DNA of 64,000 nt from a phage. The DNA is taken from the sequence record NC_111505.1. One strand, written 5' to 3'. The position numbers and the translations under genes were made by a program. Below, in pieces: positions 11,089-45,683 of the stretch. Numbering within the stretch: position 1 is the first letter of the stretch; each line of letters starts with the position of its first letter. Below the pieces are notes generated by a model. That model had not been told where the DNA came from and searched no databases. It saw only the letters and a program-made list of their open reading frames with translations.

Positions 11089-11120
11089 ACCTTCATCTTA
11101 ACAAGACAGGAGACTGATTA

Positions 11121-12698: not shown

Positions 12699-12726
12699 TA
12701 GTATAGTTACTAACAAGAGGTGAGGA

Positions 12727-13105: not shown

Positions 13106-13133
13106 TTTAAAACAACATAAGGAGACTCTTACT

Positions 13134-13439: not shown

Positions 13440-13443
13440 CGAC

Positions 13444-13472
13444 AAAGAGGGGTTTTGGCCCCTCTTTTTACT
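13444..13472 (+). terminator. Rho-independent terminator
   Basis: AGAGGGG-TTTTGG-CCCCTCT hairpin followed by TTTTTA. Confidence 0.7.
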
Positions 13473-13492
13473 ATCTATGAAGGAGATCAGAG

Positions 13493-13819: not shown

Positions 13820-13827
13820 GGTGGATT

Positions 13828-14127
13828 ATGTCTACAGCGACAGCTAAATACTCCTATATGCCAGCAACATCAGCAGAAATAGACTTCAGTTTCGATGTGT
13901 TTCCATTGTTTGAGATAGTTCTGGCATACCCAACAATTCTATCTACTCCTGAATCACTTGTGCCTATTAAGTTGCAGAACGCTATGCATTCCATGCACTA
14001 CAACAATAAATGCAGGCACAGATGGTGTCAGGACGAGGAAAAAGACTTGGACAGTTTGAAAGATTTTGACAGTCACCTTTTGACCCCCTTCAGTTACTCC
14101 AACCTAGACAAGCCATCATGGGTATAG
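13828..14127 (+). CDS. hypothetical protein (99 aa)
   Basis: Track start is GTG 13816; ATG 13828 preceded by GAGGTGG. Confidence 0.55.
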   Translation: MSTATAKYSYMPATSAEIDFSFDVFPLFEIVLAYPTILSTPESLVPIKLQNAMHSMHYNNKCRHRWCQDEEKDLDSLKDFDSHLLTPFSYSNLDKPSWV

Positions 14128-14151
14128 CAAAATATCAAATTTAAGGCACCT

Positions 14152-14180
14152 AGGACGCTCTGTGGCGTCCTTTTCTTTAT
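14152..14180 (+). terminator. Rho-independent terminator
   Basis: AGGACGC-TCTGTG-GCGTCCT hairpin followed by TTTCTTT. Confidence 0.65.
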
Positions 14181-14339
14181 CTGGTGCACGATTGCATACC
14201 TTAGATGGATAATCTTATTACAGAGCGTTTAATGGCGGCCTGTAAACAACTTTCTATTTCGAGCGTAGCGAGAACGCACGTCCGTTTTGACCCAAATCAC
14301 CATACGCTCGGATTTTAACCAACCCTCGCGGCGTTTCTG

Positions 14340-14368
14340 TTGACACATTACCGCTCCTGTGATAGTAT
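14340..14368 (+). promoter_or_regulatory. Sigma70-like promoter TTGACA-N17-TAGTAT
   Basis: The track ORF 14340-14651 'start' is the TTG of this -35 box. Confidence 0.55.
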
Positions 14369-14388
14369 CCTCACATCGTTTGAAGAAT

Positions 14389-14490
14389 ATGGAATACGCA
14401 ATGAAAACATTGTCCGAGGTTTTGGTGGTGATCCTGATGATCATTACGTCCATAGCGGCTGTTGCCGGAATACTCACAGGTGGAACATGA
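14389..14490 (+). CDS. candidate 33-aa hydrophobic peptide
   Basis: MEYAMKTLSEVLVVILMIITSIAAVAGILTGGT downstream of the 14340 promoter; weak SD. Confidence 0.3.
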   Translation: MEYAMKTLSEVLVVILMIITSIAAVAGILTGGT

Positions 14491-14651
14491 CCAACACACA
14501 TGCACCTAAAGAGACATCTGAAGAAGCGACCGCAGAGAAAAACTTCAATTCTGAGGATTCTCTATCTCCGTCCCAGGTGGACCCTGAGGCTAATGACCTG
14601 ACGTGGGAGGACATCATAGCCATCTGGTTCTCTATCATGCCTGAGAACTAA
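14487..14651 (+). CDS. candidate small acidic protein (54 aa)
   Basis: ATG overlaps the previous stop (ATGA); in frame with track ORF 14340-14651; - strand ORF 14229-14501 is an alternative. Confidence 0.3.
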   Translation: MTNTHAPKETSEEATAEKNFNSEDSLSPSQVDPEANDLTWEDIIAIWFSIMPEN

Positions 14652-14795
14652 GAGTTCAGAGGTGGCAGACTATGAAGCACCGAGCCCACATAAGTTTATC
14701 ATGCTAAAGCATGGCCTGAAGAGGCAAACGTATATAAATTCCAGTGCATTGGAACGTATAACCCTGTTCACACTCTCATTTCCAGAGGAGATTTT

Positions 14796-15011
14796 ATGAA
14801 GATAGAAATATTTGGTGGAGCTGACAACACTCGTGGCCTGATTTACCTTGAATTCGATGAATCATACCTGCCAGAGGTGTTAAATATAGACTCTGTTGCT
14901 GAGGCTTTGGGAGTAAACCCTAAAGAACTCCACTCTTGTGCTGAGATCGATGGTTGGGAAGAGACCATGAACATTGATTTCAGTGAAGTAGAGGATGAAC
15001 CGCTGGACTGA
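14796..15011 (+). CDS. small acidic protein, MKIEIF paralog family
   Basis: ATG with AGAGGAGA SD. Confidence 0.55.
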   Translation: MKIEIFGGADNTRGLIYLEFDESYLPEVLNIDSVAEALGVNPKELHSCAEIDGWEETMNIDFSEVEDEPLD

Positions 15012-15359
15012 CACACAATTAGCTGCCAGGCTAAAGTGCTGGAAGCACCTATAACACATCTTTCAACTAAATTTCCTACCACCACAATCACTTACCTCCC
15101 ACACATGACTGTTTGCTTGTTTAGTGAGCAGTCATGCCTTGACATTCTTGCCTATCCTGATAAAATTAAGTTCTTCTCTTTTCTTTTACCGAGTAATTCG
15201 GGTTTTCTGTTCTCTTCGGTTTGAAGGGGTATGGAGATACACCTGAGTGAACAGGGTGAACAACCGAACAGTTGGCTATGGCATTAGCATGGCGAAGCGG
15301 ACGGGTGACGAAAGAGGGGCCGGAGGACACCAGTCACTGCCATATGGTATATGGGTGAT

Positions 15360-15925
15360 AACCTGAAGAGTCTGAATAAGTGTTTAAGTACCAGTCAGAG
15401 GAAAAGGTGAATGGTAGCCGAAGGGGGAGGGGGGTTTCTTGTATCTTTAATTTGTATATTTTATATACACTTGTAAACCAATTTCATCTGAATCTGTTTA
15501 CCACACAAAGTGGATAAAGTCAAATATTCCCTATTAAACTTGAATTATTTATAGAAAATACCACAACACCACTTAAGTCTTTGATTTTACACACAAATCT
15601 TACAAATATCTTACCTCCATATTTAACATACCTGTAACATATTCCATACTCTACCTGCCTGGTCAATTTACCCACCACATTCTCCACATTTTCCCTTCCT
15701 GTACTACCCCTGCCCCGCCGGGAGTCCCGTCATATCTGGCTTTCCAGCAAATATCACACCCACAAATATCATCACCTGAAGAGTGATTCATCCTATAATA
15801 CCTGCCTTACCTGAAGAGCGCTCCATACCCCACGTAAATTTTTTAATTGACCCCCTGCCCCGCCGGAGGGGTTGGCTTTTCCCACACAGGCCTGAAGAGT
15901 CAGCCAGAAATATCTGAAGGGGGTC
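15360..15925. repeat. Dispersed CCTGAAGAG motif (5 copies) plus two CCCTGCCCCGCCGG copies
   Basis: Copies near 15362, 15777, 15812, 15892, 15914; GC-rich direct repeats near 15708 and 15852; irregular spacing as for protein-binding sites. Confidence 0.5.
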
Positions 15926-16096
15926 CAGTTCTGCCACGATTTTGACCTGACCTACAGGAGCGCTGCCAGGCGGACGAAATGGGAATACTTCTCATTCTTA
16001 TAACAATTCTCAAATATCAAGGCAGTGAGGCAAATTAATAGGCGAGGCCGTTCACACAGTGGCGCAACATTTGCAAGCTATTTTGTGTGGATGAAT

Positions 16097-16130
16097 GAGA
16101 ATACTTATCATTGTGAGAATCGTTATCATT
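16097..16130. repeat. Tandem 16-mer GAGAATNNTTATCATT (2 copies, 2-nt spacer)
   Basis: 16097-16112 and 16115-16130; the same 16-mer recurs at 27733-27748 and 27869-27884. Confidence 0.55.
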
Positions 16131-16534
16131 ACGGGCAATTTAACATAATACCCATTATGCGCACCACTGGCGATACATACATGGATTGATAACATGGGTT
16201 ACTGTTTACGCATATAACAATTGTATTTCTTATTATTTGTGGGGGATATAGTTAGCGACCAATAGATTAGATATTAACCTGCAGACTTCTGACCGTCCAG
16301 ACGTCTAAACGCCCACACAACAAGGGTTATACATACACTCCTGAATGTAAACAGGGCAGCAAAAATGCTACCATACCAGATTGTAAATTTTCCATGCAGC
16401 ACTTGACAAAGAGGAGAAAAACTTGTCTGACACAATGTCACACAATATGCCATAATCTGACACCTTATACACTTTCGACACAATAACGACTGTTATTATT
16501 TCATGTTTCATTGTTCACGTGCAGATTGTTCCCA

Positions 16535-16890
16535 CATAGACTGTTTACGCCCGGATAGTTTACACCTTGACAGTTTACACAAAGATGATAAGCCATGACA
16601 TTCGTTTGCATGATAACACCCTTGAGACGAGGGCCATGCTCCCGAGTTTAACAATTAACAAGATAACAATTGACAGGCCGACAATTAACAAGTTAACAAT
16701 ATATGACATAATATAAAAGCAGGGCAACTATTAGCAGATCATAGTTGCCTTGCTTATTATGTCATGATTAACTGAATACAAGGCAACTATGATCTGATCA
16801 ATAGTTTGCAGGCAAACTATCACGGGGGTGATGGTTACTGCTTTTATATTATGTCGCGACTCCGTCGCGCCATGACATTCGTTTGCATAG
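16535..16890. repeat. Cluster of direct repeats and palindromes (operator/iteron-like)
   Basis: Three (C/T)(T/A)GTTTACRC repeats at 16541-16582; CATGACATTCGTTTGCAT twice (16594, 16871); ACAATTAACAAG twice; two palindromes GCAACTAT-N9/10-ATAGTT(T)GC with GATC cores (16724-16748, 16783-16809). Confidence 0.5.
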
Positions 16891-17499
16891 TTGCCTTATT
16901 GTTACAGGTAAAACAATTACATTGTTAACTATTTCTTATCTTTCTCTTAGTCATCTAATGATTCCAGTCAGTATAGTTATGTACAGTAAACATTAGACGA
17001 CTAAAGATTTCTCTGATTATAGTAACCTATCGTGACAATTTCAGACTGTTTACGAAAAATGTTGACACCTGGGCGGGTTTATGTTATGCAGTTTACACGA
17101 ATAATTATTTCATACAGGTATTGACTATTCCGTTATTCTGTGGTTGGAATAAATACTTTGCAGGCTATAGAATGGTGTGCGTACGTGAATTCTGAGATCT
17201 GGCGGCTATAGTTACACCCGATTTTTCGCGCAGAACACGCTTTTTGGTTTGTGTAAGTGTATGACTTATAAAGATTTTTAGTTGTTGACACGGTATTGAA
17301 GATGTGCATCAGGTTAAATTTTGTGCAATAACTGCATTACGTGCAATTTTGGGAGAGAAAACGGGTAAAAATAGCACCGCTACCACACAATGAAAGGTTA
17401 TGCAATAGCTATTTTACATGTATATTTGTACAGTGTGCGGGATTGATGGCTCGTCAATTATTCCACTTGTCAGGTAGGGCCGTTTATGGTATGGGGAAG

Positions 17500-17529
17500 A
17501 GCAGACAAAAAGAAAGGGGCCTAAGCCCC
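17500..17529 (-). terminator. Rho-independent terminator at the end of the - strand transcription unit
   Basis: GGGGC-TTAG-GCCCC hairpin followed on the - strand by TTTCTTTTTGTC. Confidence 0.6.
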
Positions 17530-17549
17530 TTGATAATTCAGTTAAAAAA

Positions 17550-17969
17550 TTATAATGATTCGTATATTTCAAAAATCCGATTTGCCAGGTCGTTACGGTA
17601 GCGGAATTTTTCCTCACGTTTGATCATCAGATCTTTAAAGCCGTATTCTTTAAGCACTTCATTAACTTTATGGCGGCACACCTTCATATTGTCCTGAGCG
17701 TCACCAATAAACCTGTTGCTATGGTGCATGGCTTTAATTTCTTCTTCCAGGACCAGGGCAACTATGCGGACCGGATCAAGCTGATAGGCGGTAACATCCA
17801 TGCGGCATTGTAAACGGCTTTTTACGTCTGCCACCGGATATACTGCAACCTCCTCCCCGTCAACATTGACAATAATTAGTTTACCATCGATTTCGAATCC
17901 TTTCGCCGCCGGACCGTGACAAAAAGCGTTATCAAAGCTATATGCCGGATTATTAGATTTAATGTTCAT
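17550..17969 (-). CDS. hypothetical protein (139 aa)
   Basis: ATG with AAGAGG SD. Confidence 0.6.
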   Translation of the reverse strand: MNIKSNNPAYSFDNAFCHGPAAKGFEIDGKLIIVNVDGEEVAVYPVADVKSRLQCRMDVTAYQLDPVRIVALVLEEEIKAMHHSNRFIGDAQDNMKVCRHKVNEVLKEYGFKDLMIKREEKFRYRNDLANRIFEIYESL

Positions 17970-18112
17970 GGTGTTTTTACCTCTTAGTTAATTTTATTAC
18001 AACTTCTCTTCAAAAAAGAATATAGCAAAACTGCCGATCCCTGTCAACCAGGGATAGCATAATTTTTATGTGATCAAGGGGCTTTATTACCCCCTGACCG
18101 TAACTTGTTGTA

Positions 18113-18376
18113 TTATTTGTTGCTCATCCAGTTTTCCCAAGCTGCATGATAATCTGCCTCACTGCGGCGGATCTCTTCTTGTTCTTCAAGCCGGATCTCT
18201 TCTTCCAGGTACCCAAGGATATCGGATTTTTTGGTCTGGCGTAACATCCAATCATCTTTTTTACGAGTAAAGATCTTGTACGCTTTCTCGCAAACCTCTT
18301 TTTTGCTACCTTTTTGGACTTCAAGAACTTTGTAGGCCATGTACTGAACTAGTTTGAGCTGATCAAGACGTTTCAT
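18113..18376 (-). CDS. hypothetical basic/acidic helical protein (87 aa)
   Basis: ATG with AAAGAGG SD; preferred over overlapping 18124-18324 and + strand 18070-18270 ORFs. Confidence 0.5.
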   Translation of the reverse strand: MKRLDQLKLVQYMAYKVLEVQKGSKKEVCEKAYKIFTRKKDDWMLRQTKKSDILGYLEEEIRLEEQEEIRRSEADYHAAWENWMSNK

Positions 18377-18438
18377 GATGTTTTTACCTCTTTATGCGGT
18401 CCTGGTTAGTGGGCCTTTTGGCCCGTGTCATTATCTTA

Positions 18439-18711
18439 TTACTTACGGCGGCAGAATTCAAGTGTTTTTAATTGATAATCTTCCTCAGCCTGGAGTACGA
18501 CCGCCTCGATCATTTCGTTGGCATTGTTAAAGCCATAACCTTTAGCGAACTCATCCGCGCCACCTTCGTGATCATGTTCTGCGTTCATCGCTTCCACAAA
18601 ATGGAATTCCAAATTGTTGAGGTAGGGGCTTGATGTTCCGTCCTCTTTTTCGATGAGATCCCAAATAGCATTAAAACGTGATTCGACTTCTTGATTAATC
18701 CAGCTTGACAT
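18439..18711 (-). CDS. hypothetical acidic protein (90 aa)
   Basis: ATG with GGAGAGAGGA SD. Confidence 0.6.
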   Translation of the reverse strand: MSSWINQEVESRFNAIWDLIEKEDGTSSPYLNNLEFHFVEAMNAEHDHEGGADEFAKGYGFNNANEMIEAVVLQAEEDYQLKTLEFCRRK

Positions 18712-18765
18712 AGTGTTTTCCTCTCTCCTGGTTGTTGTGTGGGCACTTTTGCCCCTTCAAGATAA

Positions 18766-18794
18766 ATGTTACCTCACCCCATGGCAGATGTCAA
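18766..18794 (-). promoter_or_regulatory. Sigma70-like promoter (TTGACA-N17-TAACAT), - strand
   Basis: Followed by 5' hairpin GGGCA-AAAG-TGCCC and the SD of gene 18439-18711. Confidence 0.5.
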
Positions 18795-18928
18795 CGGTTT
18801 TTATAGTTCTTATATGACAGGCAGGCCCGGTGATTGTCTCCCCCTGTTCCCAAGTGCCGCCCGTTTAATAAGAATAGCAAAAGGGGCCGAACAAGTCAAC
18901 CCCAAAATCAGTACCAAAACACTTTTAT

Positions 18929-19240
18929 TTATACGGTCCGATCATTGGCCTTTGTCCAGGACCTGGCGATCCGTTTCCCGGTCACCTGGAACGGAGGCTG
19001 CATTGTGTGTAATGAGTCCAGAGTAAGGGAGGACCGTTTACGGCGTATCTTCAGGATCGCTAACGTATTGTCCATCTCACGGCCAGGTCCTGGGCGGTAT
19101 GGTGTGCCTCCAGCGTTAAGGTTGATGATCTCATGTATTGAGATCCGGCGTTGTTTTGCTTCCGCATCTTTGAAGATAGCCAGCGGAGGCGCTATGCGTT
19201 GCCGATACCAATCTAAAACGGTTGGCGTAATAGCGATCAT
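18929..19240 (-). CDS. hypothetical protein (103 aa)
   Basis: ATG with GGGGGT SD; overlapping + strand ORFs 18766-19026 and 18834-19289 judged less likely; 12-bp inverted repeats CCAGGACCTGGC / GCCAGGTCCTGG lie inside. Confidence 0.4.
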   Translation of the reverse strand: MIAITPTVLDWYRQRIAPPLAIFKDAEAKQRRISIHEIINLNAGGTPYRPGPGREMDNTLAILKIRRKRSSLTLDSLHTMQPPFQVTGKRIARSWTKANDRTV

Positions 19241-19428
19241 ATTTTACCCCCTATGTAGTCCGGTCGGTTTTTCTCTGTCATACGCTTAAGCAATTCTTGC
19301 ATGTTGCTTATGGCTTGTAGTGTATCCTCTTCAAGGGATGAATCAAGATAATCAGGATCATTCTTCACCTTGCAATGATTATGATAACGCAGTACCGCCA
19401 GTACTTTTTTAACTTCTTCCGCTGTCAT
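19237..19428 (-). CDS. hypothetical protein (63 aa)
   Basis: ATG start; ATGA overlap with downstream gene; weak SD. Confidence 0.4.
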   Translation of the reverse strand: MTAEEVKKVLAVLRYHNHCKVKNDPDYLDSSLEEDTLQAISNMQELLKRMTEKNRPDYIGGKI

Positions 19429-19436
19429 TATCGCGC

Positions 19437-19571
19437 CTAAAACAATGAGTTAATATATAACACCAGATCGCTGACTACCAGGACAACATTAATCAGCACA
19501 TACCTAACCATAAAGGGAAAGATCGCCAACATTGCCGCCACGATCCCCATGGTAATAATTATCTTTCTCAT
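19437..19571 (-). CDS. candidate 44-aa membrane peptide
   Basis: MRKIIITMGIVAAMLAIFPFMV...; ATG 5 nt after the upstream stop; no clear SD. Confidence 0.3.
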   Translation of the reverse strand: MRKIIITMGIVAAMLAIFPFMVRYVLINVVLVVSDLVLYINSLF

Positions 19572-19573
19572 GG

Positions 19574-19858
19574 TTAACGGTTCACGTAAGTTTTCCCGTT
19601 CACGGTTATGGGCAGATCCTCCAGGTCTGGATCTTCTTTAAGGTCGCGAGCAAGCTCACCGCACCGGATACCTTCGAATCCGTAGTACTCTGTTGTGCCG
19701 TCCTTAAAAGTTTTTGCGGCAAGGCATAACCGATAAGTAACACCGATTTGATTGACGGCATGGATATCAGTTAGATCTACCTCTTTTGCCAGCTCTTTAG
19801 CCATTACAGGCGCATTAAGTCCAATAACCAGGGCAACTACTGCGATCATCTTTTTCAT
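19574..19858 (-). CDS. small secreted protein (signal peptide)
   Basis: MKKMIAVVALVIGLNAPVMA then KE...; ATG with AAAGAGGA SD. Confidence 0.6.
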   Translation of the reverse strand: MKKMIAVVALVIGLNAPVMAKELAKEVDLTDIHAVNQIGVTYRLCLAAKTFKDGTTEYYGFEGIRCGELARDLKEDPDLEDLPITVNGKTYVNR

Positions 19859-19947
19859 GTTGTCTATCCTCTTTCTGCTGCGTTTAAGGCGGTCACCGCC
19901 GCCTGTTTATGCTTTGTTAGTTAATGGGGCGTACGGTATAGATTAAA

Positions 19948-20163
19948 CTATGCTGTACGCTCAACTATAACAACGGCTTGAGGGATCTCACCTTCCACCA
20001 CTATCAAGGCTTTTTTCTGCGTGATAGATATCTTTACCCGCTTCAGCGTGGCGGTAAAATCTTTCATTTCGTCACGTGGTGTTTTAGTGCAATACCAGAT
20101 CTCAGGCTTACCTATTTGCAAGCCGCGTAAAAATTCCGTTTTGCCTGTTTTGTTCGTGATCAT
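19948..20163 (-). CDS. hypothetical protein (71 aa)
   Basis: Track start is GTG 20172; ATG 20163 has AAGGTGA SD. Confidence 0.5.
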   Translation of the reverse strand: MITNKTGKTEFLRGLQIGKPEIWYCTKTPRDEMKDFTATLKRVKISITQKKALIVVEGEIPQAVVIVERTA

Positions 20164-20350
20164 TTGTTTCACCTTACCCGATACCGTGGGAAGACAGGAT
20201 CATGTTAGCCATAGTTGCAACCACTCCAACCGATAATGCCATGCCAACTACTACAACCGTGAAAATTTTTTCTAACATGATTCCACCATCATTAATGGGC
20301 GTTGCCTTATTGCCCCGCCCTATGTCGTACACTTTTCTTCTGATCCTCTG

Positions 20351-20614
20351 TTAGCATACGATAGCGATCACGCCGCCACAAATAAAAGGTAAATCAAAAC
20401 GGTCTAACTTGCAAGCTATTTTTAAACGAAAGGTAACATAAAAGAAAAGTTGCAAACAATCGATCATTGTGTTAGCTGTTAAAACGCTGCCAGCATTAAA
20501 CACCACCACGCCCACGGCGTTAAACGTTGCGTTACTCACGAAAGCGAAAAGGCAAGCGATCACGGTGGCGATCATAATGTTGCGTTTTGTCAATCTGTAA
20601 ATGATGTTTTTCAT
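20351..20614 (-). CDS. membrane protein (87 aa, 2-3 TM)
   Basis: ATG start; hydrophobic; preceded by promoter and 5' hairpin GGCGGCA..TGCCGCC. Confidence 0.5.
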   Translation of the reverse strand: MKNIIYRLTKRNIMIATVIACLFAFVSNATFNAVGVVVFNAGSVLTANTMIDCLQLFFYVTFRLKIACKLDRFDLPFICGGVIAIVC

Positions 20615-20654
20615 TCTGTCATGTTGGCGGCATCATTGCCGCCCTACGAAATAC

Positions 20655-20682
20655 ATTCTACCCGATTTGTAATTGTTGTCAA
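20655..20682 (-). promoter_or_regulatory. Sigma70-like promoter (TTGACA-N16-TAGAAT), - strand
   Basis: - strand reads TTGACAacaattacaaatcgggTAGAAT, followed by a stable hairpin then the ATG of 20351-20614. Confidence 0.6.
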
Positions 20683-20683
20683 A

Positions 20684-20878
20684 CTAATTTTTACAAGGAA
20701 TCAGTAAACTTCTTGCTACTGCTTCGCGTAGTCCTTGACTTTTTATCAGATCTATTGTTGCAGGATGGCAAGTAAAAGCCTTTGACCATTTTTGATCCCC
20801 TGGTTTACGGGCAAAAATGTAAACTTCCCCGTCGATTTCATCCCAACGAGTATTGCTTGTTAGTTTTTTAAGCGCCAT
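20684..20878 (-). CDS. hypothetical protein (64 aa)
   Basis: Track start is GTG 20908; ATG 20878 with AAAGGGAA SD. Confidence 0.5.
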   Translation of the reverse strand: MALKKLTSNTRWDEIDGEVYIFARKPGDQKWSKAFTCHPATIDLIKSQGLREAVARSLLIPCKN

Positions 20879-20953
20879 GATGATTTCCCTTTTAGTTGTG
20901 AGCGGCACTATTACCGCCCTATGTGATACATCTTAAACTAATTTAAAACGTTG

Positions 20954-21187
20954 TCAACACTTTTCAAAAAATTTTTCTGCCGTGATATTCTTCCCGGTAG
21001 GGTTCGCTACTTTCAAAATTTTATCATGCACTGGACGCCCAAAAGAATAAGCGCCGTACACAGTGCACCAATAATCGCCGTCAGGCTGTACTATTACCGC
21101 CGCATAGGGTACGCCTTTTTCGTTTTTGCTGACAAAATAGATCACATTGCCATTAATAGCCTCAGCGCGTTTAATTTGTTCCATCAT
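20954..21187 (-). CDS. hypothetical protein (77 aa)
   Basis: ATG with GGTGA SD. Confidence 0.55.
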   Translation of the reverse strand: MMEQIKRAEAINGNVIYFVSKNEKGVPYAAVIVQPDGDYWCTVYGAYSFGRPVHDKILKVANPTGKNITAEKFFEKC

Positions 21188-21250
21188 GATGATTCACCTA
21201 TCTTTATTTTTTCATAGTTTCAGGAGGGGCCTTTTTCGGCCCCGCCAGGC

Positions 21251-21535
21251 TTATTTATTGATGGCGTGCAGCGGGAAAGGTACGCCAGGTTGATAGATAA
21301 CTTTTACAACCTCATCAGGGCAAAAGAAGTTACAAAATTCACCCTGATAAGCCTCATCCTCTTTTAATTCTTCATCAACATACTGGAAAAAGTAGTCGAT
21401 GCTTGGATAATCCTGACCGGGATTATAGTCAACCATTGTCAGGACCAGTTCAAGATCGTTGCGTAGTATATGCATACCCGCTTTTAAGTATTTTGCTTCC
21501 ATTTCTACTACATCGCCAACGGTAACAATAGCCAT
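21251..21535 (-). CDS. hypothetical acidic protein (94 aa)
   Basis: ATG with TAGGAG SD. Confidence 0.6.
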   Translation of the reverse strand: MAIVTVGDVVEMEAKYLKAGMHILRNDLELVLTMVDYNPGQDYPSIDYFFQYVDEELKEDEAYQGEFCNFFCPDEVVKVIYQPGVPFPLHAINK

Positions 21536-21736
21536 GATTTTAACTCCTATCTATCCGGTTAATGATTGGGGGCCGCCCCCCCTGACACGTCCTATTATCC
21601 ATATTGTAGGGCTTGATGCAAGTACTTTTTAAATTTTTTTAAGCGCCTTGTGGGCCGCTGTAACGCTAAAATAATAAAGGCCATGCAACCGCATAGCCTT
21701 TATGTGATTATATCGCTGCAGGCCCTGCCAGGGGCC

Positions 21737-22087
21737 TTATTTTGCATTCTTTCCTATATTTCCGCCACGGTACCAGCGTTTACGGTGAAAATGGTAATAA
21801 TCACCGTCGGCATTGAACATCAAATGATTTTCAATAACCAGCTTACGAAGGTGTGCCGGATCTTGTTCCATTCTTGCCAGATTCCGGCGGCTGTTACGTA
21901 GGCGGATAAATTCCATATTCAGGCCGTTGATTGCAGTATGGATGTCAAAGTAACCACCTTTGAGACGTTCACGCATAGCGTTAAGCTCGACACGGTATAC
22001 AGATTTCTCACAAATCAAGGTATTAGCCAGGGCGCGGACCTGGGCAAGGGGGTTAAGCTCGTTAAGGTAATATAGTTTGACTTTCAT
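21737..22087 (-). CDS. hypothetical basic protein (116 aa)
   Basis: ATG with AGGTGA SD; followed on the - strand by hairpins (21721-21736, 21677-21705). Confidence 0.6.
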   Translation of the reverse strand: MKVKLYYLNELNPLAQVRALANTLICEKSVYRVELNAMRERLKGGYFDIHTAINGLNMEFIRLRNSRRNLARMEQDPAHLRKLVIENHLMFNADGDYYHFHRKRWYRGGNIGKNAK

Positions 22088-22104
22088 AAAATCACCTGCT
22101 GAAA

Positions 22105-22410
22105 CTAGTTTGAGAAAACATCGTTCACAATAGCGATCACAATGCCGTTCACTTTGTCACGGTCAACAATGCACAAATCACCATAGATCATGTGGTAGTC
22201 TGGATGATCTTTCACAGAATAGTCAATAAGTGTTTTCTTGTCGTCCAGCTTCGTAACTTCCATTCTCATAACGATATGAGAATCATCAAAGGTATTATTC
22301 CGAAAAGTCATAGCCTGACCACCTAGGCATCCAGTGATCTCGACTTCCACACCGTCTACGATCTGACCATCAAAGAAATAAAGATTATTGGCGGGTATGA
22401 ACATGATCAT
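22105..22410 (-). CDS. hypothetical protein (101 aa)
   Basis: ATG with AAAAAGGAG SD. Confidence 0.6.
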   Translation of the reverse strand: MIMFIPANNLYFFDGQIVDGVEVEITGCLGGQAMTFRNNTFDDSHIVMRMEVTKLDDKKTLIDYSVKDHPDYHMIYGDLCIVDRDKVNGIVIAIVNDVFSN

Positions 22411-22448
22411 TGCTCCTTTTTGCGCTGATTATTTTAGCAGGGTTTAAA

Positions 22449-22498
22449 TTTACTTTATTGATGGCCCTGGAGTCAAGGCCATCTAAAAATAAATTTTA
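22449..22498. repeat. 45-bp intergenic cassette copy 1 (promoter-like TTGACT..TAAATT around a 7-bp-stem hairpin)
   Basis: TTTACTTTATTGATGGCCCTGGAGTCAAGGCCATCTAAAAATAAA; sits directly 3' of the - strand stop codon. Confidence 0.6.
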
Positions 22499-22696
22499 CA
22501 GGCCTACAATCTCTTTGATTCGTTTAACTGCTGCCTCAGCGCCTTGGGGGTAGAAATTATGGTAACCGATCACGCGAGTGATACTAATCGCCGTTTGATG
22601 ATCTTCATAATCGCCCTTGAAGATTTCTTGACCGTCAATCAGCACGGCAATTTTTTCTTCTTTTTTGAAGTTAATAACGCGGATATTGTTGCTCAT
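22496..22696 (-). CDS. hypothetical protein (66 aa)
   Basis: ATG with AAAGGAGAAA SD. Confidence 0.6.
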   Translation of the reverse strand: MSNNIRVINFKKEEKIAVLIDGQEIFKGDYEDHQTAISITRVIGYHNFYPQGAEAAVKRIKEIVGL

Positions 22697-22836
22697 TTTG
22701 TTTCTCCTTTCTGGTTTTTGTGTTGGTGGGGATTAGCTCCCCGTTGATTGTCATTATCCACATTCCGGACCGGATTGCAACACCCCGGAAGAAAATTTTT
22801 TTAAAAAGATAAGCCCCCATGATCGGGGGCCGTTCT

Positions 22837-22956
22837 TAGTTACTTACTGCGATAAAGTACATCCCTACGCCTAGCAATATTTCAAGGGCGATGATCTCAA
22901 GCCATACCATAACCCGGCGCACCTTATCGGTGCGGGGCTTATCCTTGGGTGTCATC
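22837..22956 (-). CDS. candidate 39-aa membrane peptide
   Basis: MTPKDKPRTDKVRRVMVWLEIIALEILLGVGMYFIAVSN; SD GGGGGAG; followed by terminator-like hairpin CCCCCG-ATCAT-GGGGG plus U-tract (about 22795-22830). Confidence 0.3.
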
Positions 22957-22975
22957 GTCTCCCCCTTTCCTCCTG

Positions 22976-23197
22976 TTAGTAGTGACGTGGTTTACAATGG
23001 TCCCCAGGAGTACTATCGCCACGCACATTACGAGAAAAATTATTTCTTCCGTTGTTCGGTCCATTATTATAAAAGTCCTCAAGATCAGGCCTAAAAGTAA
23101 ATCCTTCGTTATTGAATCCGTCACGCCAGGCGGCTGGCTTCAAATCTTCACTAAATGGATTAATTAACGTGGCATTATTTAAACGGCTGGCCCACAT
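22976..23197 (-). CDS. hypothetical Asn/Gly-rich protein (73 aa)
   Basis: Track start is TTG 23215; ATG 23197 with GAGAGGAA SD. Confidence 0.45.
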   Translation of the reverse strand: MWASRLNNATLINPFSEDLKPAAWRDGFNNEGFTFRPDLEDFYNNGPNNGRNNFSRNVRGDSTPGDHCKPRHY

Positions 23198-23546
23198 ATT
23201 TTCTATTCCTCTCAAATAAGCGATCCGCCTCAGTTAAACAAATCTCATGGGCGTGATCTCTGGTTTTAGCCTCATCGAAAACCTGTTGCGCAAGGCTGCA
23301 ACGTAGGGAGATCGGGAGATCACTATAATAGGCGTTGACAAACGTTTGAGCGTCGTACAGGTCTGAAAATACTTCACCCTTTCTATTATTCCCCTTGTCA
23401 ACAATTGCAAGGATAATTAATACAATAGTTGCAACCACCCCCAGGAAAATAGATATAATAAACCATAAAAAGGCGGATCTTCCCATCTTGCCAGCGATCC
23501 AGGCGTTAAATAAGGCGACCAACACAGCCAAAATAATAAATTCCAT
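23175..23546 (-). CDS. membrane protein (2 TM) with soluble C-terminal domain
   Basis: Track start is TTG 23579; ATG 23546 with AAAAGAGG SD. Confidence 0.55.
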   Translation of the reverse strand: MEFIILAVLVALFNAWIAGKMGRSAFLWFIISIFLGVVATIVLIILAIVDKGNNRKGEVFSDLYDAQTFVNAYYSDLPISLRCSLAQQVFDEAKTRDHAHEICLTEADRLFERNRKYVGQPFK

Positions 23547-23610
23547 TCTATGTACCTCTTTTGCAGTTCTTATCAACAATAAGGCGGCAAATATGCCGCC
23601 TGCTACCTGA

Positions 23611-23991
23611 TTAAAAATTATCGCCGTAAATCTTTCCGCTTTCTACCCATACCACCACGCGAGGCATACTATCCCACACGTCTTGTTTTAGATTGAGCGC
23701 GTGCAATTCTTCGGTGGTGCTCATACCGGGCACGGGCTGATTGTATACTGCAAAACGACCGCCTGCATAATCATAGGCCAGGGTTAAATCACACTGGATC
23801 ATCTTTTTGATCATGGCATTAAGCATGGCGTTAGCCGCATATTGATCACGTTTTAAAGGCAACTCTTTGATTAGTTTGCGATAGTTTTCGATATGGTCGC
23901 ACACTGTTTCACGCGGAAGATCTTTCATATCTTCACGGAATGTGACCAGGTTAAACATAACGGTGTCAATAGCCTTGGTGGTGTTTTTCAT
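23611..23991 (-). CDS. hypothetical protein (126 aa)
   Basis: ATG with AGAGGA SD. Confidence 0.6.
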   Translation of the reverse strand: MKNTTKAIDTVMFNLVTFREDMKDLPRETVCDHIENYRKLIKELPLKRDQYAANAMLNAMIKKMIQCDLTLAYDYAGGRFAVYNQPVPGMSTTEELHALNLKQDVWDSMPRVVVWVESGKIYGDNF

Positions 23992-24074
23992 GATGTTATC
24001 CTCTATGTTTTGTGTTGGGGCAAACGTCTTGCCCCTTGAGTTTTAATATAGCAGGTTTTTAGGTTATTGCAACA

Positions 24075-24326
24075 CTATTTTTTTTTTAAATTATTGTGGC
24101 GCAAAATGTTTAAAATCTCCTCAACGTCATCAACACGGCGGCAATTTTTAAACGCTACCAATTGCCCCATGATTTTAATCACTGGGCGGCCTTGCCAGTG
24201 CCCCTGAAGAAAGCGCGCTTTGACTTTATCGGTGGAACTATCACGCCACCAGATAGCTTTATTGTTGCAGTAGTAAAAATTATTCAGGATAACATCAACT
24301 TTATCAAAATTTTTTAATTTGCGCAT
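24075..24326 (-). CDS. hypothetical basic protein (83 aa)
   Basis: ATG with AAAGGAG SD. Confidence 0.6.
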   Translation of the reverse strand: MRKLKNFDKVDVILNNFYYCNNKAIWWRDSSTDKVKARFLQGHWQGRPVIKIMGQLVAFKNCRRVDDVEEILNILRHNNLKKK

Positions 24327-24546
24327 GGCGTTTACTCCTTTCTCTCTTTGATGTGGTTAGTATAGCTAATCTGTTGACGATGTCAATGATATTTTTAACG
24401 CTATAAAACGGCCCTGAGCGATGTTTTCAGGTTAAAGGGGGGCGATTGCATAGGTGGGGGCCTTTTTTGGCGCTTACGGGGCCAACCAGGGGCGCTATTA
24501 GTAGGATAGAAATAAAAAGCCCCGCACAATGGCGGGGCGTTGGTTG

Positions 24547-24744
24547 TTATTTGTCTTTATGGCGGTATCGTTCTGCCTGTCGTTCACGTTCCAAAAGTAG
24601 GCCGGGCAATTTACGATCATAATGATTCCGCCAGATCTTCCCAAACCTTTTTGGCTTATTCAGTTTATTGTTGCGCTGTCGGCGTTCTGGCAGCTCTTCG
24701 GAATCATGAGGGCGCTTTACAATTTTCTCGAAATTAATTTTCAT
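24547..24744 (-). CDS. small highly basic (Arg/Lys-rich) protein (65 aa)
   Basis: Track start is TTG 24768; ATG 24744 with AAGGGGGAA SD; + strand ORF 24540-24737 rejected. Confidence 0.5.
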   Translation of the reverse strand: MKINFEKIVKRPHDSEELPERRQRNNKLNKPKRFGKIWRNHYDRKLPGLLLERERQAERYRHKDK

Positions 24745-25087
24745 ATATTCCCCCCTTGTTAACCTCAATATTGGCCTGAATAGCCCGGATACGGCGCTTT
24801 ATAACTTCCTGATCTGTGTGGTCGTATCCCCAAAAGTCAACAATTTTTGCGCCCCCCGCCTCCAGGCGGTATAGTGTTTCCTGCATTTTGTAAGCCGGGA
24901 TCGGTCGCGGTGTTACTTGGTCACCTTCTTTATTTTTATACTTTATAATATAATCTTCGTTATCGTTGAATGTCCAAAATGGATATTCTGCAAGGGCGGT
25001 ACTTCCTCTTTCCTTTTTATCCTGGATCTTGTTTACAATTAAAGCCGTAGCAATAGCGCCAATAATAAAACTAGTCCCGCTGATCAT
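24734..25087 (-). CDS. membrane-anchored protein (N-terminal TM, 117 aa)
   Basis: Track start is GTG 25093; ATG 25087 with AAAGGAGAAAG SD. Confidence 0.55.
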   Translation of the reverse strand: MISGTSFIIGAIATALIVNKIQDKKERGSTALAEYPFWTFNDNEDYIIKYKNKEGDQVTPRPIPAYKMQETLYRLEAGGAKIVDFWGYDHTDQEVIKRRIRAIQANIEVNKGGIYEN

Positions 25088-25163
25088 GTGCACTTTCTCC
25101 TTTCATGGTGTTAATAAATTATCTTTATAGATGGCCCTGCAACCAGGACCACCGAAAAAATAA

Positions 25164-25409
25164 CTATTTCACAATGCCTACAAAACAGATCCCGCCTTCA
25201 CCTATGTAAGCAACATCGGTAACTTTATAATTTGTCAAGATCTGTTTATTTAGTTCATTAATAAAATCGGTCATTGCGTTGGTGTGGTTGTCTTCCATGT
25301 CTAGGGAATAGTCCCAGGTGTAGACCTTTTTACGTCCGAAGCCTTTTACCATGATACGGGCGCTTTTGGTGTTGGTGGGCGCATAATATTTTGTGATTAG
25401 TGCTGCCAT
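25164..25409 (-). CDS. hypothetical protein (81 aa)
   Basis: ATG with TGAGGAG SD. Confidence 0.6.
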   Translation of the reverse strand: MAALITKYYAPTNTKSARIMVKGFGRKKVYTWDYSLDMEDNHTNAMTDFINELNKQILTNYKVTDVAYIGEGGICFVGIVK

Positions 25410-25450
25410 GGGTTTTAACTCCTCATTAGTTCAGTGTTAACAGTGTAAAG

Positions 25451-25500
25451 TTTACTTTATTGATGGCCCTGGAGTCAAGGCCATCTAAAAATAAATTTTA
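25451..25500. repeat. 45-bp intergenic cassette copy 2
   Basis: Near-identical to 22449-22498 and 26073-26120; a degenerate partial copy lies at about 25121-25140. Confidence 0.6.
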
Positions 25501-25839
25501 CTCGTTTTCTTCCAGCTCTGAAAGCTCCTCTTTCACTTCTTCCAGCTCTGTCTGCAATTCCTGGTATTCTTCATCGTCCTCAATATCCAGGCTGTCGATG
25601 TAGTCGCTAAATCCGCAGCGGTAAGCGATAGGATCTAACTCCTTGAGGATACGCGACGGAAGAAAAGAAATGTTACCGATCATAATTTCGCCGTGAATCT
25701 CGTCTAACCATTCATCATAGTTTTCGTCGTACTTGTCCTCGTCGATTTCAAAGTTATCGATCTTGTTCTCAAGATCTGCGATCTGTTTTTTCAGCGCGGC
25801 GATCTGCATAGCTTTTTCTGCGGCGGTCATAGTAGTCAT
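25498..25839 (-). CDS. acidic coiled-coil protein (113 aa)
   Basis: ATG with AAAAAGGAGAAAA SD. Confidence 0.6.
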   Translation of the reverse strand: MTTMTAAEKAMQIAALKKQIADLENKIDNFEIDEDKYDENYDEWLDEIHGEIMIGNISFLPSRILKELDPIAYRCGFSDYIDSLDIEDDEEYQELQTELEEVKEELSELEENE

Positions 25840-25917
25840 GGTGTTTTCTCCTTTTTGTGTTTTGGGAAGTTTTCCCGTTTACGTGTTTAAGTATACCGAT
25901 TTAGGTTAACTTGTCAA

Positions 25918-26037
25918 TTAAAAATTTAAGAAAAATTTTGCAAAACTGTTGGCGCTACTCATTAACATTTGCGCCAGGATGTAACCGACAACGCAAACGA
26001 TAATAGTTACCTTTGTGTATTGGCGTGTAGTGCTCAT
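25918..26037 (-). CDS. candidate 39-aa membrane peptide
   Basis: MSTTRQYTKVTIIVCVVGYILAQMLMSSANSFAKFFLNF; SD AAAAAGGGGG; immediately downstream of cassette copy 3. Confidence 0.3.
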   Translation of the reverse strand: MSTTRQYTKVTIIVCVVGYILAQMLMSSANSFAKFFLNF

Positions 26038-26072
26038 CTTAAAGCCCCCTTTTTTCGCTTAGTTGAGACTAG

Positions 26073-26120
26073 TTTACTTTATTGATGGCCCTGGAGTCAA
26101 GGCCATCTAAAAATAAACTT
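26073..26120. repeat. 45-bp intergenic cassette copy 3
   Basis: AGTTTACTTTATTGATGGCCCTGGAGTCAAGGCCATCTAAAAATAAA directly 3' of the stop of 26119-26523. Confidence 0.6.
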
Positions 26121-26523
26121 AATAAGTTTTCAGTACTTTCCCGTCCAACCTGTCAAGCTGGATCTCAATAGCTGCAGAAAACCTATTGTACACCACGTCG
26201 CCCATAGAATCCAACCAATCTATGACGTTATATACCTGCTCTTTATTCTTACAGGTCCGGATCCGTTTCATGATGTAAGCCGGATCAATATTGGTACTCT
26301 CGTTGGTGTTCCCCTGTACCTGGTTTGCTGTATTAGTTACATCTTTAATGGCCTTTACCACCACCTGGAAGGGCTTTAAGGTGCCTTTTGCGTTCATCTC
26401 ACGCGCTTTTGCGGCGCGGTTGTTATATGTTACACAACGGCGGCAAATGTTGATCAAATGCATGTCAATAATTTTTTCATCGTTTGCCAACTCGTTCATG
26501 ATGCGGCGTACGTTCTTATTCAT
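26119..26523 (-). CDS. hypothetical protein (134 aa)
   Basis: ATG with AAAGGAAAAAG SD. Confidence 0.6.
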   Translation of the reverse strand: MNKNVRRIMNELANDEKIIDMHLINICRRCVTYNNRAAKAREMNAKGTLKPFQVVVKAIKDVTNTANQVQGNTNESTNIDPAYIMKRIRTCKNKEQVYNVIDWLDSMGDVVYNRFSAAIEIQLDRLDGKVLKTY

Positions 26524-26605
26524 GATCTTTTTCCTTTGTTCTGGCGGGAGACATTCCCGCCTTTTGTGCCTAGTTTACTTGAATTTTGCAGCGTGTCAAT
26601 GATTT

Positions 26606-27004
26606 TTATTCGTGGGCACATGTCACAATGTGCTTTTTATAGCCCAGGCGGTCAGCAAGTGCCGCCAAAAACTCTTCTTCGTAGATCCAGCCGTCGGCAG
26701 TGATCCCCATAGTATTTAATGCGCTCTCAAGTGCTGCGTTGGCTTTATCATAACCGTGACCGCTCGCCTTGCCGCCAGTATAGCCGTACTTATTGTTCTT
26801 GTTGTCGTGTATCCAAAAAACGCAGTAGTAAGTGTTCCCGCTGGCGGCGGCATAATACCGGATCTCAGCTACTTCGTGCAAATTATTGTCATCGTCCAGG
26901 CCCACCAGATTATAAGCCTTGTAAAATCCACGATCACGGCGGCAGTTCTTGACATCAGAAAAAGAAAAGTCCGCATTATCAAAATTAAAGGTAGTGGTTT
27001 TCAT
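26606..27004 (-). CDS. hypothetical protein (132 aa)
   Basis: ATG with AAGAGGA SD. Confidence 0.6.
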   Translation of the reverse strand: MKTTTFNFDNADFSFSDVKNCRRDRGFYKAYNLVGLDDDNNLHEVAEIRYYAAASGNTYYCVFWIHDNKNNKYGYTGGKASGHGYDKANAALESALNTMGITADGWIYEEEFLAALADRLGYKKHIVTCAHE

Positions 27005-27016
27005 GATTTTATCCTC

Positions 27017-27265
27017 TTAGTGTCTTTTGTGGTTTTTAGTGTAGTTGGTGTCAGGCCGTATGTCAATATTATTTTTATTAAACCAGTGGTTGATCTGGCC
27101 TTTTGTCAGGGCGCAACGATTAAGCTGTTGCCGGGTATAGCTCTGACCACGACGGAATTTATAAAGGCCTTGCCCGTTGTTGATGGTTACATCCACCCGG
27201 CAAACCATTTGATCGGTGACCGCCCGGTGAGTGTTGCGACGTACTTTAATTCCGTAGGCGTTCAT
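27017..27265 (-). CDS. hypothetical basic protein (82 aa)
   Basis: ATG with GAGAGAGGA SD. Confidence 0.6.
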   Translation of the reverse strand: MNAYGIKVRRNTHRAVTDQMVCRVDVTINNGQGLYKFRRGQSYTRQQLNRCALTKGQINHWFNKNNIDIRPDTNYTKNHKRH

Positions 27266-27352
27266 GATTTTTTATCCTCTCTCTGTTAATTGGTGTGGTG
27301 TTGTTCACCTTGCGAGGATAAGAATAACAAGAACTGTCCGAGCTGTCAACCA

Positions 27353-28009: not shown

Positions 28010-28185
28010 TAAAAATCCATTTCTGAAAACGAAAAATCGATTTCGTCCCCAAAAATTTCAGGTCGAGCGCCGGAACGATTCCCAGAAAATCTGATTCAGA
28101 AAACGAAAAACAGATCGAGTACCGAAAAATTTATCGAGAAAAATTTTCAGAAAATTCAATCTTTGAAACGAAAAACAGATCGAGT
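28010..28185. repeat. AT-rich iteron array (3 copies of GAAAACGAAAAACAGATCGAGTAC-like 23-mer with GATC cores)
   Basis: Copies at about 28019, 28094, 28160 (66-75 bp spacing); flanking ATCCATTT repeats at 28011, 28371, 28391, 28453. Confidence 0.45.
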
Positions 28186-44982: not shown

Positions 44983-45284
44983 TAGAATCCTCCTACTTCT
45001 TCAGCAAATGCTGCTGCTGTTGTCGCTGCATCCAGATATGATTCTAGTTCACGGGCTGCACGTTTGTAAATAGAGTGTCGCAGATCGTTCGGGAGTTGGT
45101 GAAAGTCCACCTCTTCTCCGTTGTGATAAACATGTAAATCGGTAATCTGTCTAAATCCATAATAATCAACATCAGAATCGCGGCACTCCGGATCTGGCAA
45201 CTGGACAACTGCCTGAGCTTCTACAGTGAGCATATCGTCAAGTTCGAAATCGATTTCAAAAGTGTATGGTTTGTAACGCTTCAT
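44982..45284 (-). CDS. hypothetical acidic protein (100 aa)
   Basis: ATG with GAGGAG SD; TAATG overlap downstream. Confidence 0.6.
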   Translation of the reverse strand: MKRYKPYTFEIDFELDDMLTVEAQAVVQLPDPECRDSDVDYYGFRQITDLHVYHNGEEVDFHQLPNDLRHSIYKRAARELESYLDAATTAAAFAEEVGGF

Positions 45285-45344
45285 CGTTTGGTGCTCTCCT
45301 CAGTTTTGTGGGGAGGAGTTCCTCCCCTTTATGCTCACATCTTA

Positions 45345-45683
45345 CTACTGAAGGTCTTCAGAGTCAAGCTCAAAAAGAATCAAACTGTGCATGTTTGCAG
45401 AGAGCTCAACACACTCCGCAACGACAAGGGTCTGATAGTAAGGTTCAGCACCCTCGATGTCTTCGTTAAAATCCACAACAAGGTAGTCACCTTTGTTAAA
45501 GGTGTATTTGTCAGATGTAAACGCAAACCCTGCCCAGTCCCCTACAGGGTCTTTATCGATCACCTTTGTTAGCAGGAGGTCTTTTTCACGAGATCTTTTA
45601 GTAAAATCGTGAATCACAACAGCCTTCTCTTCAGGATTTGGATTTCCACACACGTAGTTAACTATATTTCTCCACAAACTCAT
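45345..45683 (-). CDS. hypothetical protein (112 aa)
   Basis: ATG with AAAGGGGGA SD; ATGA overlap with the helicase gene. Confidence 0.6.
   Translation of the reverse strand: MSLWRNIVNYVCGNPNPEEKAVVIHDFTKRSREKDLLLTKVIDKDPVGDWAGFAFTSDKYTFNKGDYLVVDFNEDIEGAEPYYQTLVVAECVELSANMHSLILFELDSEDLQ

Follow-up and report, generated by a model that had tools for sequence, protein, structure and literature searches.

A block of small genes on the minus strand of a phage genome (sequence record NC_111505.1) contains repeated units in which a near-consensus sigma70-type promoter is followed, at an almost fixed distance, by a GC-rich hairpin, a Shine-Dalgarno (SD) sequence and a start codon. The block lies at 17550-27349 of the window, i.e. 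the whole stretch of 64,000 nucleotides that was analyzed, and comprises about 29 genes, all on the minus strand. It is somewhat probable that the units are modular expression cassettes for small accessory genes, in which the hairpin acts as a 5' stabilizer or insulator of the message while the cassettes themselves are recombination points. An initial annotation had described the order promoter, hairpin, SD and gene for several minus strand cistrons, and this order was recovered in eight units. The promoters it quoted, TTGACA-N16-TAGAAT at 20655-20682 and TTGACA-N17-TAACAT at 18766-18794, are present on the minus strand at these positions, and the hairpins it named were located at 20626-20643 (GGCGGCA..TGCCGCC), 18741-18754 (GGGCA..TGCCC) and 22728-22742 (GGGGA..TCCCC). 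The pattern is not universal, since three promoters lack a hairpin and in six other places a hairpin overlies the -35 element instead. The initial annotation included neither this second class of units nor the repetition of the cassette across subfamilies nor the junctions of gene gain and loss.

The eight units with the hairpin in the leader, called type B here, have -35 elements starting at 26599, 25917, 24072, 22780, 21621, 20957, 20682 and 18794 (Table 1). The complete cassette consists of an A/T-rich upstream tract, (GTG)TTGACA, 16-17 nt, the -10 element, about 10 nt ending A-rich, the hairpin, a linker, the SD sequence and the ATG. The hairpin sets in 9-13 nt 3' of the -10 element, most often after 10 nt, and a distance of 9-11 nt was kept even where the intervening sequences are unrelated. 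It is GC-rich and starts with G, its stem measures 5-10 bp and its loop 3-5 nt; 12-32 nt of A/C-rich, T-poor linker separate its end from the start codon. In 36 of 37 distinct hairpins the G-rich arm is on the 5' side relative to the gene. The three bases preceding the stem are about 60-65% A, and the 12 nt 3' of the hairpin contain 56% A, 21% C, 15% G and 9% T, compared to 25% T across the block. Assuming that transcription starts at the eighth nucleotide after the -10 element, the predicted leaders possess 2-6 unpaired nucleotides before the hairpin and a mostly unpaired ribosome-binding site. Hairpin, linker and SD sequence also occur without a promoter, once as a remnant after promoter deletion (hairpin 20297-20320), and the hairpin thus seems tied to the downstream cistron. 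The counterpart of this remnant in L006, a 149-kb phage contig, keeps its promoter (TTGACA-N16-TAAAGT), the window being 91 nt shorter at this place. Many genes of the block are simply coupled to the preceding gene.

A promoter scan revealed 42 promoter-like sites, while shuffled sequences gave 23.0 +/- 4.1. Downstream folding was determined in a window of 32 nt starting 6 nt after the -10 element, with a threshold of <= -8 kcal/mol. Seven of the 16 credible promoters of the block passed this threshold, against a block background of 7.9%, while promoter matches elsewhere in the window folded at background level (minus strand, 9 of 71; plus strand, 8 of 80). A stringent GC hairpin 7-14 nt after the -10 element was found at none of about 45 promoter matches outside the block (score at least 10 of 12). 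Likewise, a covariance model of the unit, which was built from 26 cassettes and run on the whole window with filters off, detected only the units of the block and one additional site at 45303-45344. The cassette type is specific to a region and not genome-wide. Many near-consensus sigma70-type promoters precede small genes at 1-17000 (plus strand) and 28500-57000 (minus strand), none of them with a leader hairpin.

To describe conservation of the units, differing alignment cells were counted among eight relatives of the same genus. The -35 and -10 hexamers differed in 1.1% and 1.7% of cells, respectively, versus 9.5% for the promoter spacer and 13.5% for the upstream flank. This selection evidence supports the view that the promoters are functional sigma70-type elements, as the initial annotation had assumed. 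Its claim of structured leaders was borne out as well: stems differed in 4.4% and loops in 18.5% of cells, and covariation reached the observed level in none of 500 shuffles. The region between the -10 element and the hairpin differed in 12.0% and the SD region in 5.5% of cells. In a cassette alignment whose structure was written by hand (A1), 86% of cells pair and seven of eight pairs show changes on both sides, amounting to 14 cells where 3.1 were expected. A model-based alignment of 62 matches (A2) gave 45 such cells versus 10.9 expected, this alignment being fitted to the structure. The score of 0/500 shuffles applies to A1 and A2 alike, and controls with slid partners collapsed. RNAalifold on the raw MAFFT alignment returned five pairs only, with a weak covariation term. 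Among orthologues, a compensatory swap from C-G to T-A was detected in three relatives in the stem at 18037-18055. Two hairpins retain their stems but have loops of opposite orientation in different relatives, namely those at 19887-19904 (CGGTGA vs. TTACCG) and at 24017-24035 (AAGACGTTT vs. AAACGTCTT). Inversion of this kind is a mark of template switching at palindromes.

In the second class of units, called type A, the hairpin overlaps the -35 element and is located at the stop codon of the upstream gene. Six such places were identified: three copies of a 61-nt repeat (D1), one diverged D1 copy and two others. The D1 fold comprises two tiers, about 20 bp of helix in total, interrupted by an asymmetric internal loop (-25 kcal/mol, z about -5 to -7); in the three full copies, TTGACT occupies the hairpin loop. 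The core hairpin of D1 is followed on the 3' side by AATAAAG without a U tract. Matches to the repeat were confined to about 120 Vequintavirus records, with three copies in each genome. At 18871-18903 a promoter overlaps with a terminator, the hairpin being succeeded by a T run. In the record of phage Murica, the hairpin 18883-18903 and the D1 elements are annotated as terminators. Apart from the units, the block contains three promoters free of a GC hairpin and five true terminators with T tails, which are separate from the type-B hairpins.

The cassette is not confined to the genus. L006 and a second 149-kb contig, L008, are of the phi92/phAPEC8 type, and L006 probably belongs to another subfamily. 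In both contigs the unit is stereotyped (TTGACA-N16/17-TAnAnT-gtatcaCATA-GGGCGGGAAAtggTTTCCCGCC), and a hairpin accompanies 10 of the 18 strong promoters of L006 and 11 of the 20 of L008, the background being 5%. A 53-nt cassette query matched 160 phage records at up to seven places per genome, among them Justusliebigvirus, Phapecoctavirus, CR3-like, Klebsiella, Enterobacter and Pectobacterium phages. Nearly all of these matches fall under no annotation; in the phi92 record, only ribosome-binding sites are annotated at the cassettes.

Presence and absence of block genes vary among the relatives, and several junctions coincide with parts of the cassettes. A search for related loci seeded with one protein yielded only five loci. 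An indel of about 700 bp comprising a gene and its promoter is bounded by AGTGTTG microhomology at two -35 regions, one of which is the -35 of the 24072 unit. A replacement of 20230-20951 starts exactly at the TTGACA of the 20957 promoter, and in L005 an insertion junction is located at the -35 of the 24386 promoter. The gene 17550-17969 was deleted in L004, leaving a chimeric hairpin composed of 18072-18099 and 17514-17531, and was also lost in L002 with a different junction. The segment 20336-20697, consisting of promoter, hairpin and an 87-aa gene, is 98.6% identical to L006, while a nearby gene (23625-23958) is only 76% identical. The module 20230-20951 (13367-13900 in L006) is 98.9% identical to phage FV3, and most other Vequintavirus genomes have unrelated genes in its place. 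In phi92-like and phAPEC8-like phages, segments of this module reach 92-99% identity, suggesting exchange between subfamilies.

From this anatomy we infer start sites, early timing, a stabilizing effect of the hairpin and a mechanism of recombination. Host sigma70 RNA polymerase would start about 7-8 nt after the -10 element, and only 2-6 unpaired bases would then precede the hairpin in the message. Most likely the hairpin serves as a 5'-terminal stem-loop, which would protect the mRNA against RppH and RNase E, whose attack depends on the 5' end. By locking away G/C-rich sequence, the hairpin may also leave the linker and the SD sequence accessible whichever upstream promoter is used, and in read-through or processed transcripts it may protect or insulate the downstream cistron. 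At type-A units, read-through transcripts would fold the hairpin, resulting in termination, processing or a 3' end, whereas transcripts from the unit's own promoter would lack it. Promoters and hairpins could moreover serve as short homologies, because their sequences recur between unrelated genes; they would allow insertion, deletion and exchange of genes within the genus as well as with phi92-like and phAPEC8-like phages. It is conceivable, yet rather doubtful, that the elements go further than this: promoter, 10 nt and hairpin would then form a mobile 'plug-and-play' element of a rV5/phi92/phAPEC8 supergroup, carrying ORFans between subfamilies by cassette recombination, with the hairpin being indispensable in cis for setting the lifetime or temporal shut-off of early messages and perhaps recognized by a phage or host factor.

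Several observations weigh against the cassette interpretation. A GC hairpin is absent from three promoters of the block and from about 45 strong promoter matches in the rest of the window, which means that promoters do not in general require one at the 5' end. The hairpin at 25864-25876 is weak (-5.5 kcal/mol). A strand test for a role on the RNA level, which compared G-U with A-C mismatches in the stems, gave no clear direction in the model alignment (13 versus 12), partly owing to register shifts; a first version of this test (63 vs. 8) was biased by the folding model. Furthermore, the hairpins are paralogous, and their fixed spacing and G-first polarity may be partly inherited rather than independently selected. 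Survivorship may explain part of the junctions, as viable indels are intergenic and intergenic DNA consists mostly of cassette. For Vequintavirus, phi92, PVP-SE1 and FV3, no data on start sites, timing or half-lives were found in the literature, and the length of the 5' overhang is a prediction.

It is unlikely that the hairpins are transcription terminators or attenuators limiting read-through from upstream promoters, as has been proposed for the promoter-early stem-loops (PeSLs) of T4-type phages. The type-A hairpins do lie at the upstream stop codon, the one at 18883-18903 with a T run, this hairpin and the D1 elements carry the Murica terminator annotation, and stem-loops of RB49 PeSLs lowered downstream lacZ expression (PMC2839356). 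Type-B hairpins, however, are located downstream of their own promoter and would stop their own transcript. Because their tails are so poor in T compared to the block, they do not appear to be intrinsic terminators; AATAAAG follows the D1 core, and genuine T-tailed terminators exist separately. A role as antisense terminators was considered and rejected, a T run being present on the plus strand at one hairpin only. Signals acting in cis on the RNA level are an improbable alternative, be it RNase III sites of the T7 early type or antitermination elements resembling nut/boxB or put. D1 comes closest to a processing site, as its two-tier helix of about 20 bp with the asymmetric internal loop is kept in a copy of only 62% identity, but with 5-10 bp the type-B stems fall short of the length that RNase III requires. 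A resemblance to boxB exists in some hairpins, where an A-rich loop caps a 5-bp GC stem, yet type-B loops have no common sequence, Rfam gave no match, and there is little to antiterminate, as nearly every other gene is preceded by a promoter and terminators are scarce.

Inverted repeats at promoters may also be read on the DNA level, as operators at which a dimeric protein of the phage or the host would bind just downstream of the start site and shut early promoters off. This explanation is the most doubtful one, even though perfect palindromes occur at a fixed place relative to the promoter and one class (GGCGGGAA-N3-5-TTCCCGCC) recurs in many cassettes and across genera. The half-sites vary within a single genome (GGGCA, GGGGA, GGGGCAAG, GGCGGGA, GGGCGGCA), only complementarity being kept; some stems contain G-T pairs, an asymmetric arrangement in DNA; the common polarity of 36 of the 37 hairpins would be needless for a symmetric operator; and the stems vary in length from 5 to 10 bp. 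There is similarly little reason to believe that the hairpins are functionless passengers of a duplicating and recombining promoter cassette, with palindromes persisting by template switching. The cassettes are clearly paralogous and mobile, and the loop inversions between relatives, including L009, demonstrate palindrome-driven mutation. On the other hand, conservation of the stems is fourfold that of the loops, shuffles contain fewer changes on both sides, the distance to the -10 element is held with unrelated sequence in between, polarity is uniform, and the tail is poor in T. Hairpin promoters of the N4 type were considered on account of the common 3-nt loops and rejected, as the hairpins always follow a sigma70 promoter. 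A Pfam search of the three largest nearby open reading frames (ORFs), which cover part of the window's ORFs and are in this respect a weak point, revealed no RNA polymerase domain (two had no match, one was DnaB-like).

Besides the cassettes, the initial annotation had proposed at least four small membrane peptides with good SD sequences. Five ORFs of 34-44 aa were identified which are intact in every relative carrying them, but the SD sequence is good in three and acceptable in one, while the fifth ORF is translationally coupled. Each product has one strongly hydrophobic stretch (maximum Kyte-Doolittle mean over 19 residues 2.0-2.6), and four of the five match PHROG families. The ORFs are annotated in several GenBank records, though inconsistently. 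This applies in particular to 22939-23064, which overlaps a 73-aa ORF (22976-23197) in another frame; the records annotate either one or the other, and the overlapped C-terminal part of the 73-aa ORF is highly variable.

Table 1. Positions of the block, its cassettes, promoters, terminators and small membrane ORFs in the window
Feature	Position	Strand	Details
Small-gene block	17550..27349	-	About 29 genes of unknown function; 16 credible sigma70-type promoters
Type-B unit	26521..26599	-	-35 26594-26599; -10 26572-26577; hairpin 26543-26561 (GGCGGGA/TCCCGCC); ATG 26523; -14.4 kcal/mol; covariance model 39.4 bits
Type-B unit	25837..25917	-	TTGACA-N16-TATACT; weak hairpin 25864-25876 (GGGAA/TTCCC); ATG 25839; 23.6 bits
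Type-B unit	23989..24072	-	TTGCAA-N16-TATATT; hairpin 24017-24035; ATG 23991; covariance-model match
Type-B unit	22694..22780	-	TTGCAA-N16-GATAAT; hairpin 22728-22742 (GGGGA/TCCCC); ATG 22696; -9.3 kcal/mol
Type-B unit	21533..21621	-	TTGCAT-N16-GATAAT (21594-21621); hairpin 21568-21582; ATG 21535
Type-B unit	20876..20957	-	TTGACA-N16-TAAGAT; hairpin 20900-20919 (two G-U pairs); ATG 20878; 39.1 bits
Type-B unit	20612..20682	-	TTGACA-N16-TAGAAT; hairpin 20626-20643 (GGCGGCA/TGCCGCC); ATG 20614; covariance-model match
Type-B unit	18709..18794	-	TTGACA-N17-TAACAT; hairpin 18741-18754 (GGGCA/TGCCC); ATG 18711; covariance-model match
Type-B unit, only one outside the block	45282..45367	-	TTGACT-N17-TAAGAT; hairpin 45310-45327 (GGGGAGG/CCTCCCC); ATG 45284
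Remnant unit	20276..20336	-	Hairpin 20297-20320, SD and ATG 20278; promoter deleted; 12.7 bits
Leader hairpin without recognizable promoter	19887..19904	-	28 nt before ATG 19858; loop inverted in relatives
Leader hairpin without promoter	18411..18424	-	GGGCC/GGCCC; before ATG 18376; loop variable, stem invariant
Leader hairpin without promoter	21226..21243	-	GGGGCC/GGCCCC; before ATG 21187
Type-A unit, D1 copy	26071..26131	-	Core hairpin 26084-26107; -35 TTGACT in loop; -10 TAAACT 26071-26076; precedes 39-aa ORF
Type-A unit, D1 copy	25449..25509	-	Core hairpin 25462-25485; -35 25473-25478; -10 25449-25454; -25.1 kcal/mol, z -6.7
Type-A unit, D1 copy	22447..22507	-	Core hairpin 22460-22483; -35 22471-22476; -10 22447-22452
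Diverged D1 copy	25117..25177	-	62% identity; two-tier fold kept (core 25130-25153); -35 lost
Type-A unit	18871..18903	-	Hairpin 18883-18903; TTGACT in loop, then T run and -10 TATTCT
Type-A unit	18019..18055	-	Hairpin 18037-18055 around -35 TTGACA; -10 TATATT
Promoter without GC hairpin	27321..27349	-	TTGACA-N17-TATTCT; rV5 P195A
Promoter without hairpin	27038..27066	-	TTGACA-N17-TACACT; inside 3' end of upstream ORF; rV5 P195
Promoter without hairpin	24359..24386	-	TTGACA-N16-TATACT
Intrinsic terminator	24519..24538	-	7 GC pairs + TTTTTATTT
Intrinsic terminator	23582..23601	-	Equivalent of rV5 t184
Intrinsic terminator	22812..22831	-	Equivalent of rV5 t181
Intrinsic terminator	21674..21703	-	Equivalent of rV5 t177
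Terminator at block end	17514..17531	-	Equivalent of rV5 t164
44-aa single-transmembrane ORF	19437..19571	-	phrog_16005; coupled to preceding gene
34-aa single-transmembrane ORF	20174..20278	-	phrog_14631
39-aa single-transmembrane ORF	22836..22955	-	Strong SD; phrog_13629
41-aa transmembrane ORF	22939..23064	-	Annotated in Gotham; intact in 8/8 relatives; no PHROG match
39-aa single-transmembrane ORF	25918..26037	-	Downstream of D1 unit; phrog_16391

Sequence matching of a 9.7-kb region of the block identified the source as a Vequintavirus, a rV5/FV3-like coliphage. The region matched 301 phage records, at least 80% of it being covered in 53 of them. The closest records are Vequintavirus phages with 92-95% identity, and identity to phage FV3 reaches 98.9% and 100% in two sub-segments. 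Nearly all features beneath the matches are annotated as 'hypothetical protein', and all 29 block products matched PHROG families of unknown function. A Pfam search of the ten largest products yielded a single named family, Phage_1_1 (T7 gene 1.1 family), which the 65-aa product of 24547-24744 (minus strand) matched with 44.2 bits at a cut-off of 21. This homologue is the only functional hint toward an 'early' timing of the block, whose genes are probably early host-takeover genes. Neither an Rfam nor a tRNA scan gave a match in the block.

In the record of phage Gotham, a terminal repeat of 459 bp is located about 1 kb past the 3' end of the block, which is transcribed toward that end. Inferred from positions 1-459 of L002, the equivalent in the window is at about 16050-16500. 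Assuming collinearity below 17000, the window probably spans a physical genome end. About 1 kb upstream of the block, the segment 27550-28520 contains only short unconserved ORFs and may correspond to the 'non-coding' box of the rV5 map; it also carries two 47-nt direct repeats with 77% identity (28012-28058 and 28086-28132). Further away, Rfam detected a group I intron (RF00028; 64.7 bits, E 4e-14) at 37531-37766 on the minus strand, between a 1132-aa ORF (37751-41149) and a 118-aa ORF (37127-37483), neither of which has a Pfam match.

The promoters and terminators of the block have been listed before. Kropinski et al. 2013 predicted sigma70 promoters and rho-independent terminators for rV5 (PMC3606486, Table S4), and orthologues of P164, P168, P194, P195, P195A and others as well as of t164, t177, t181 and t184 are present here. 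That paper (PMC3606486) contains no leader hairpins, no D1 repeat, no fixed spacing and no link to gene shuffling, and the literature search likewise gave no account of any of these features or of the cassette's spread across subfamilies. As anatomy, the cassette is well supported, while its mechanism is deduced from that anatomy. Vequintavirinae and phi92-like phages are widely used as candidates for therapy and biocontrol, and about a third of each genome consists of small genes of unknown function. If the cassettes are indeed units of expression and exchange, the turnover of accessory genes would be explained, real small genes and their promoters could be recognized by a rule in more than 150 genomes with unannotated elements, and compact natural promoter-leader parts would become available for phage engineering.

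Among known systems, the RNase III sites of the T7 early region are two-tiered, with an asymmetric internal loop separating the upper from the lower stem. D1 shares with them a helix of about 20 bp, the two tiers and the position between cistrons, a resemblance that is structural only; it differs in also containing a promoter, and the type-B hairpins are too short. Lambda nut boxB has a conserved loop sequence, and HK022 put consists of two hairpins over about 70 nt downstream of an early promoter; both differ from the units, whose loops lack a common sequence, which possess a single short hairpin each and which have no Rfam match. Emory, Bouvet and Belasco are said to have described in 1992 that a 5'-terminal stem-loop, e.g. 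that of the ompA 5' untranslated region, stabilizes mRNA in E. coli. In such stabilizers no more than about 2-4 unpaired nucleotides separate the hairpin from the 5' end, and the half-life is prolonged in dependence on RNase E and RppH. The type-B leaders are similar to ompA in that the predicted hairpin lies a few nucleotides from the 5' end and is followed by a single-stranded leader and the ribosome-binding site, but the phage would employ the hairpin as a standard module that recurs ahead of many of its genes.

The closest counterparts are the PeSLs of T4-type phages (Arbiol et al. 2010, PMC2839356; Comeau et al. 2014, PMC4122927). Like the cassettes, PeSLs combine a near-consensus sigma70 promoter, an A/T-rich upstream tract, a G(n)-loop-C(n) stem-loop, an SD sequence and a start codon (PMC2839356, PMC4122927). 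They are likewise repeated between small ORFans in a hyperplastic region, with junctions of indels and replacements in the promoter or the hairpin loop; recombination between PeSLs gives rise to indels, replacements and mini-circles (PMC2839356, PMC4122927). The stem-loop of a PeSL, described as a terminator or attenuator, is either placed upstream of the promoter or overlaps with it, between -35 and -10 or over the -10 element (PMC2839356, PMC4122927). Type-A units fit this layout, as their stem-loop is placed over the -35 element. Type-B units, by contrast, deviate from the PeSL placement: their stem-loop is inside the leader, 9-13 nt downstream of the -10 element, and has no U tract. The lineage differs too, being Vequintavirinae and Stephanstirmvirinae and not T4-like phages. 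If the proposed role of the cassettes is correct, modular shuffling in the manner of PeSLs would not be special to T4-like phages, and on the 'plug-and-play' reading the PeSL principle would gain a function on the RNA level.

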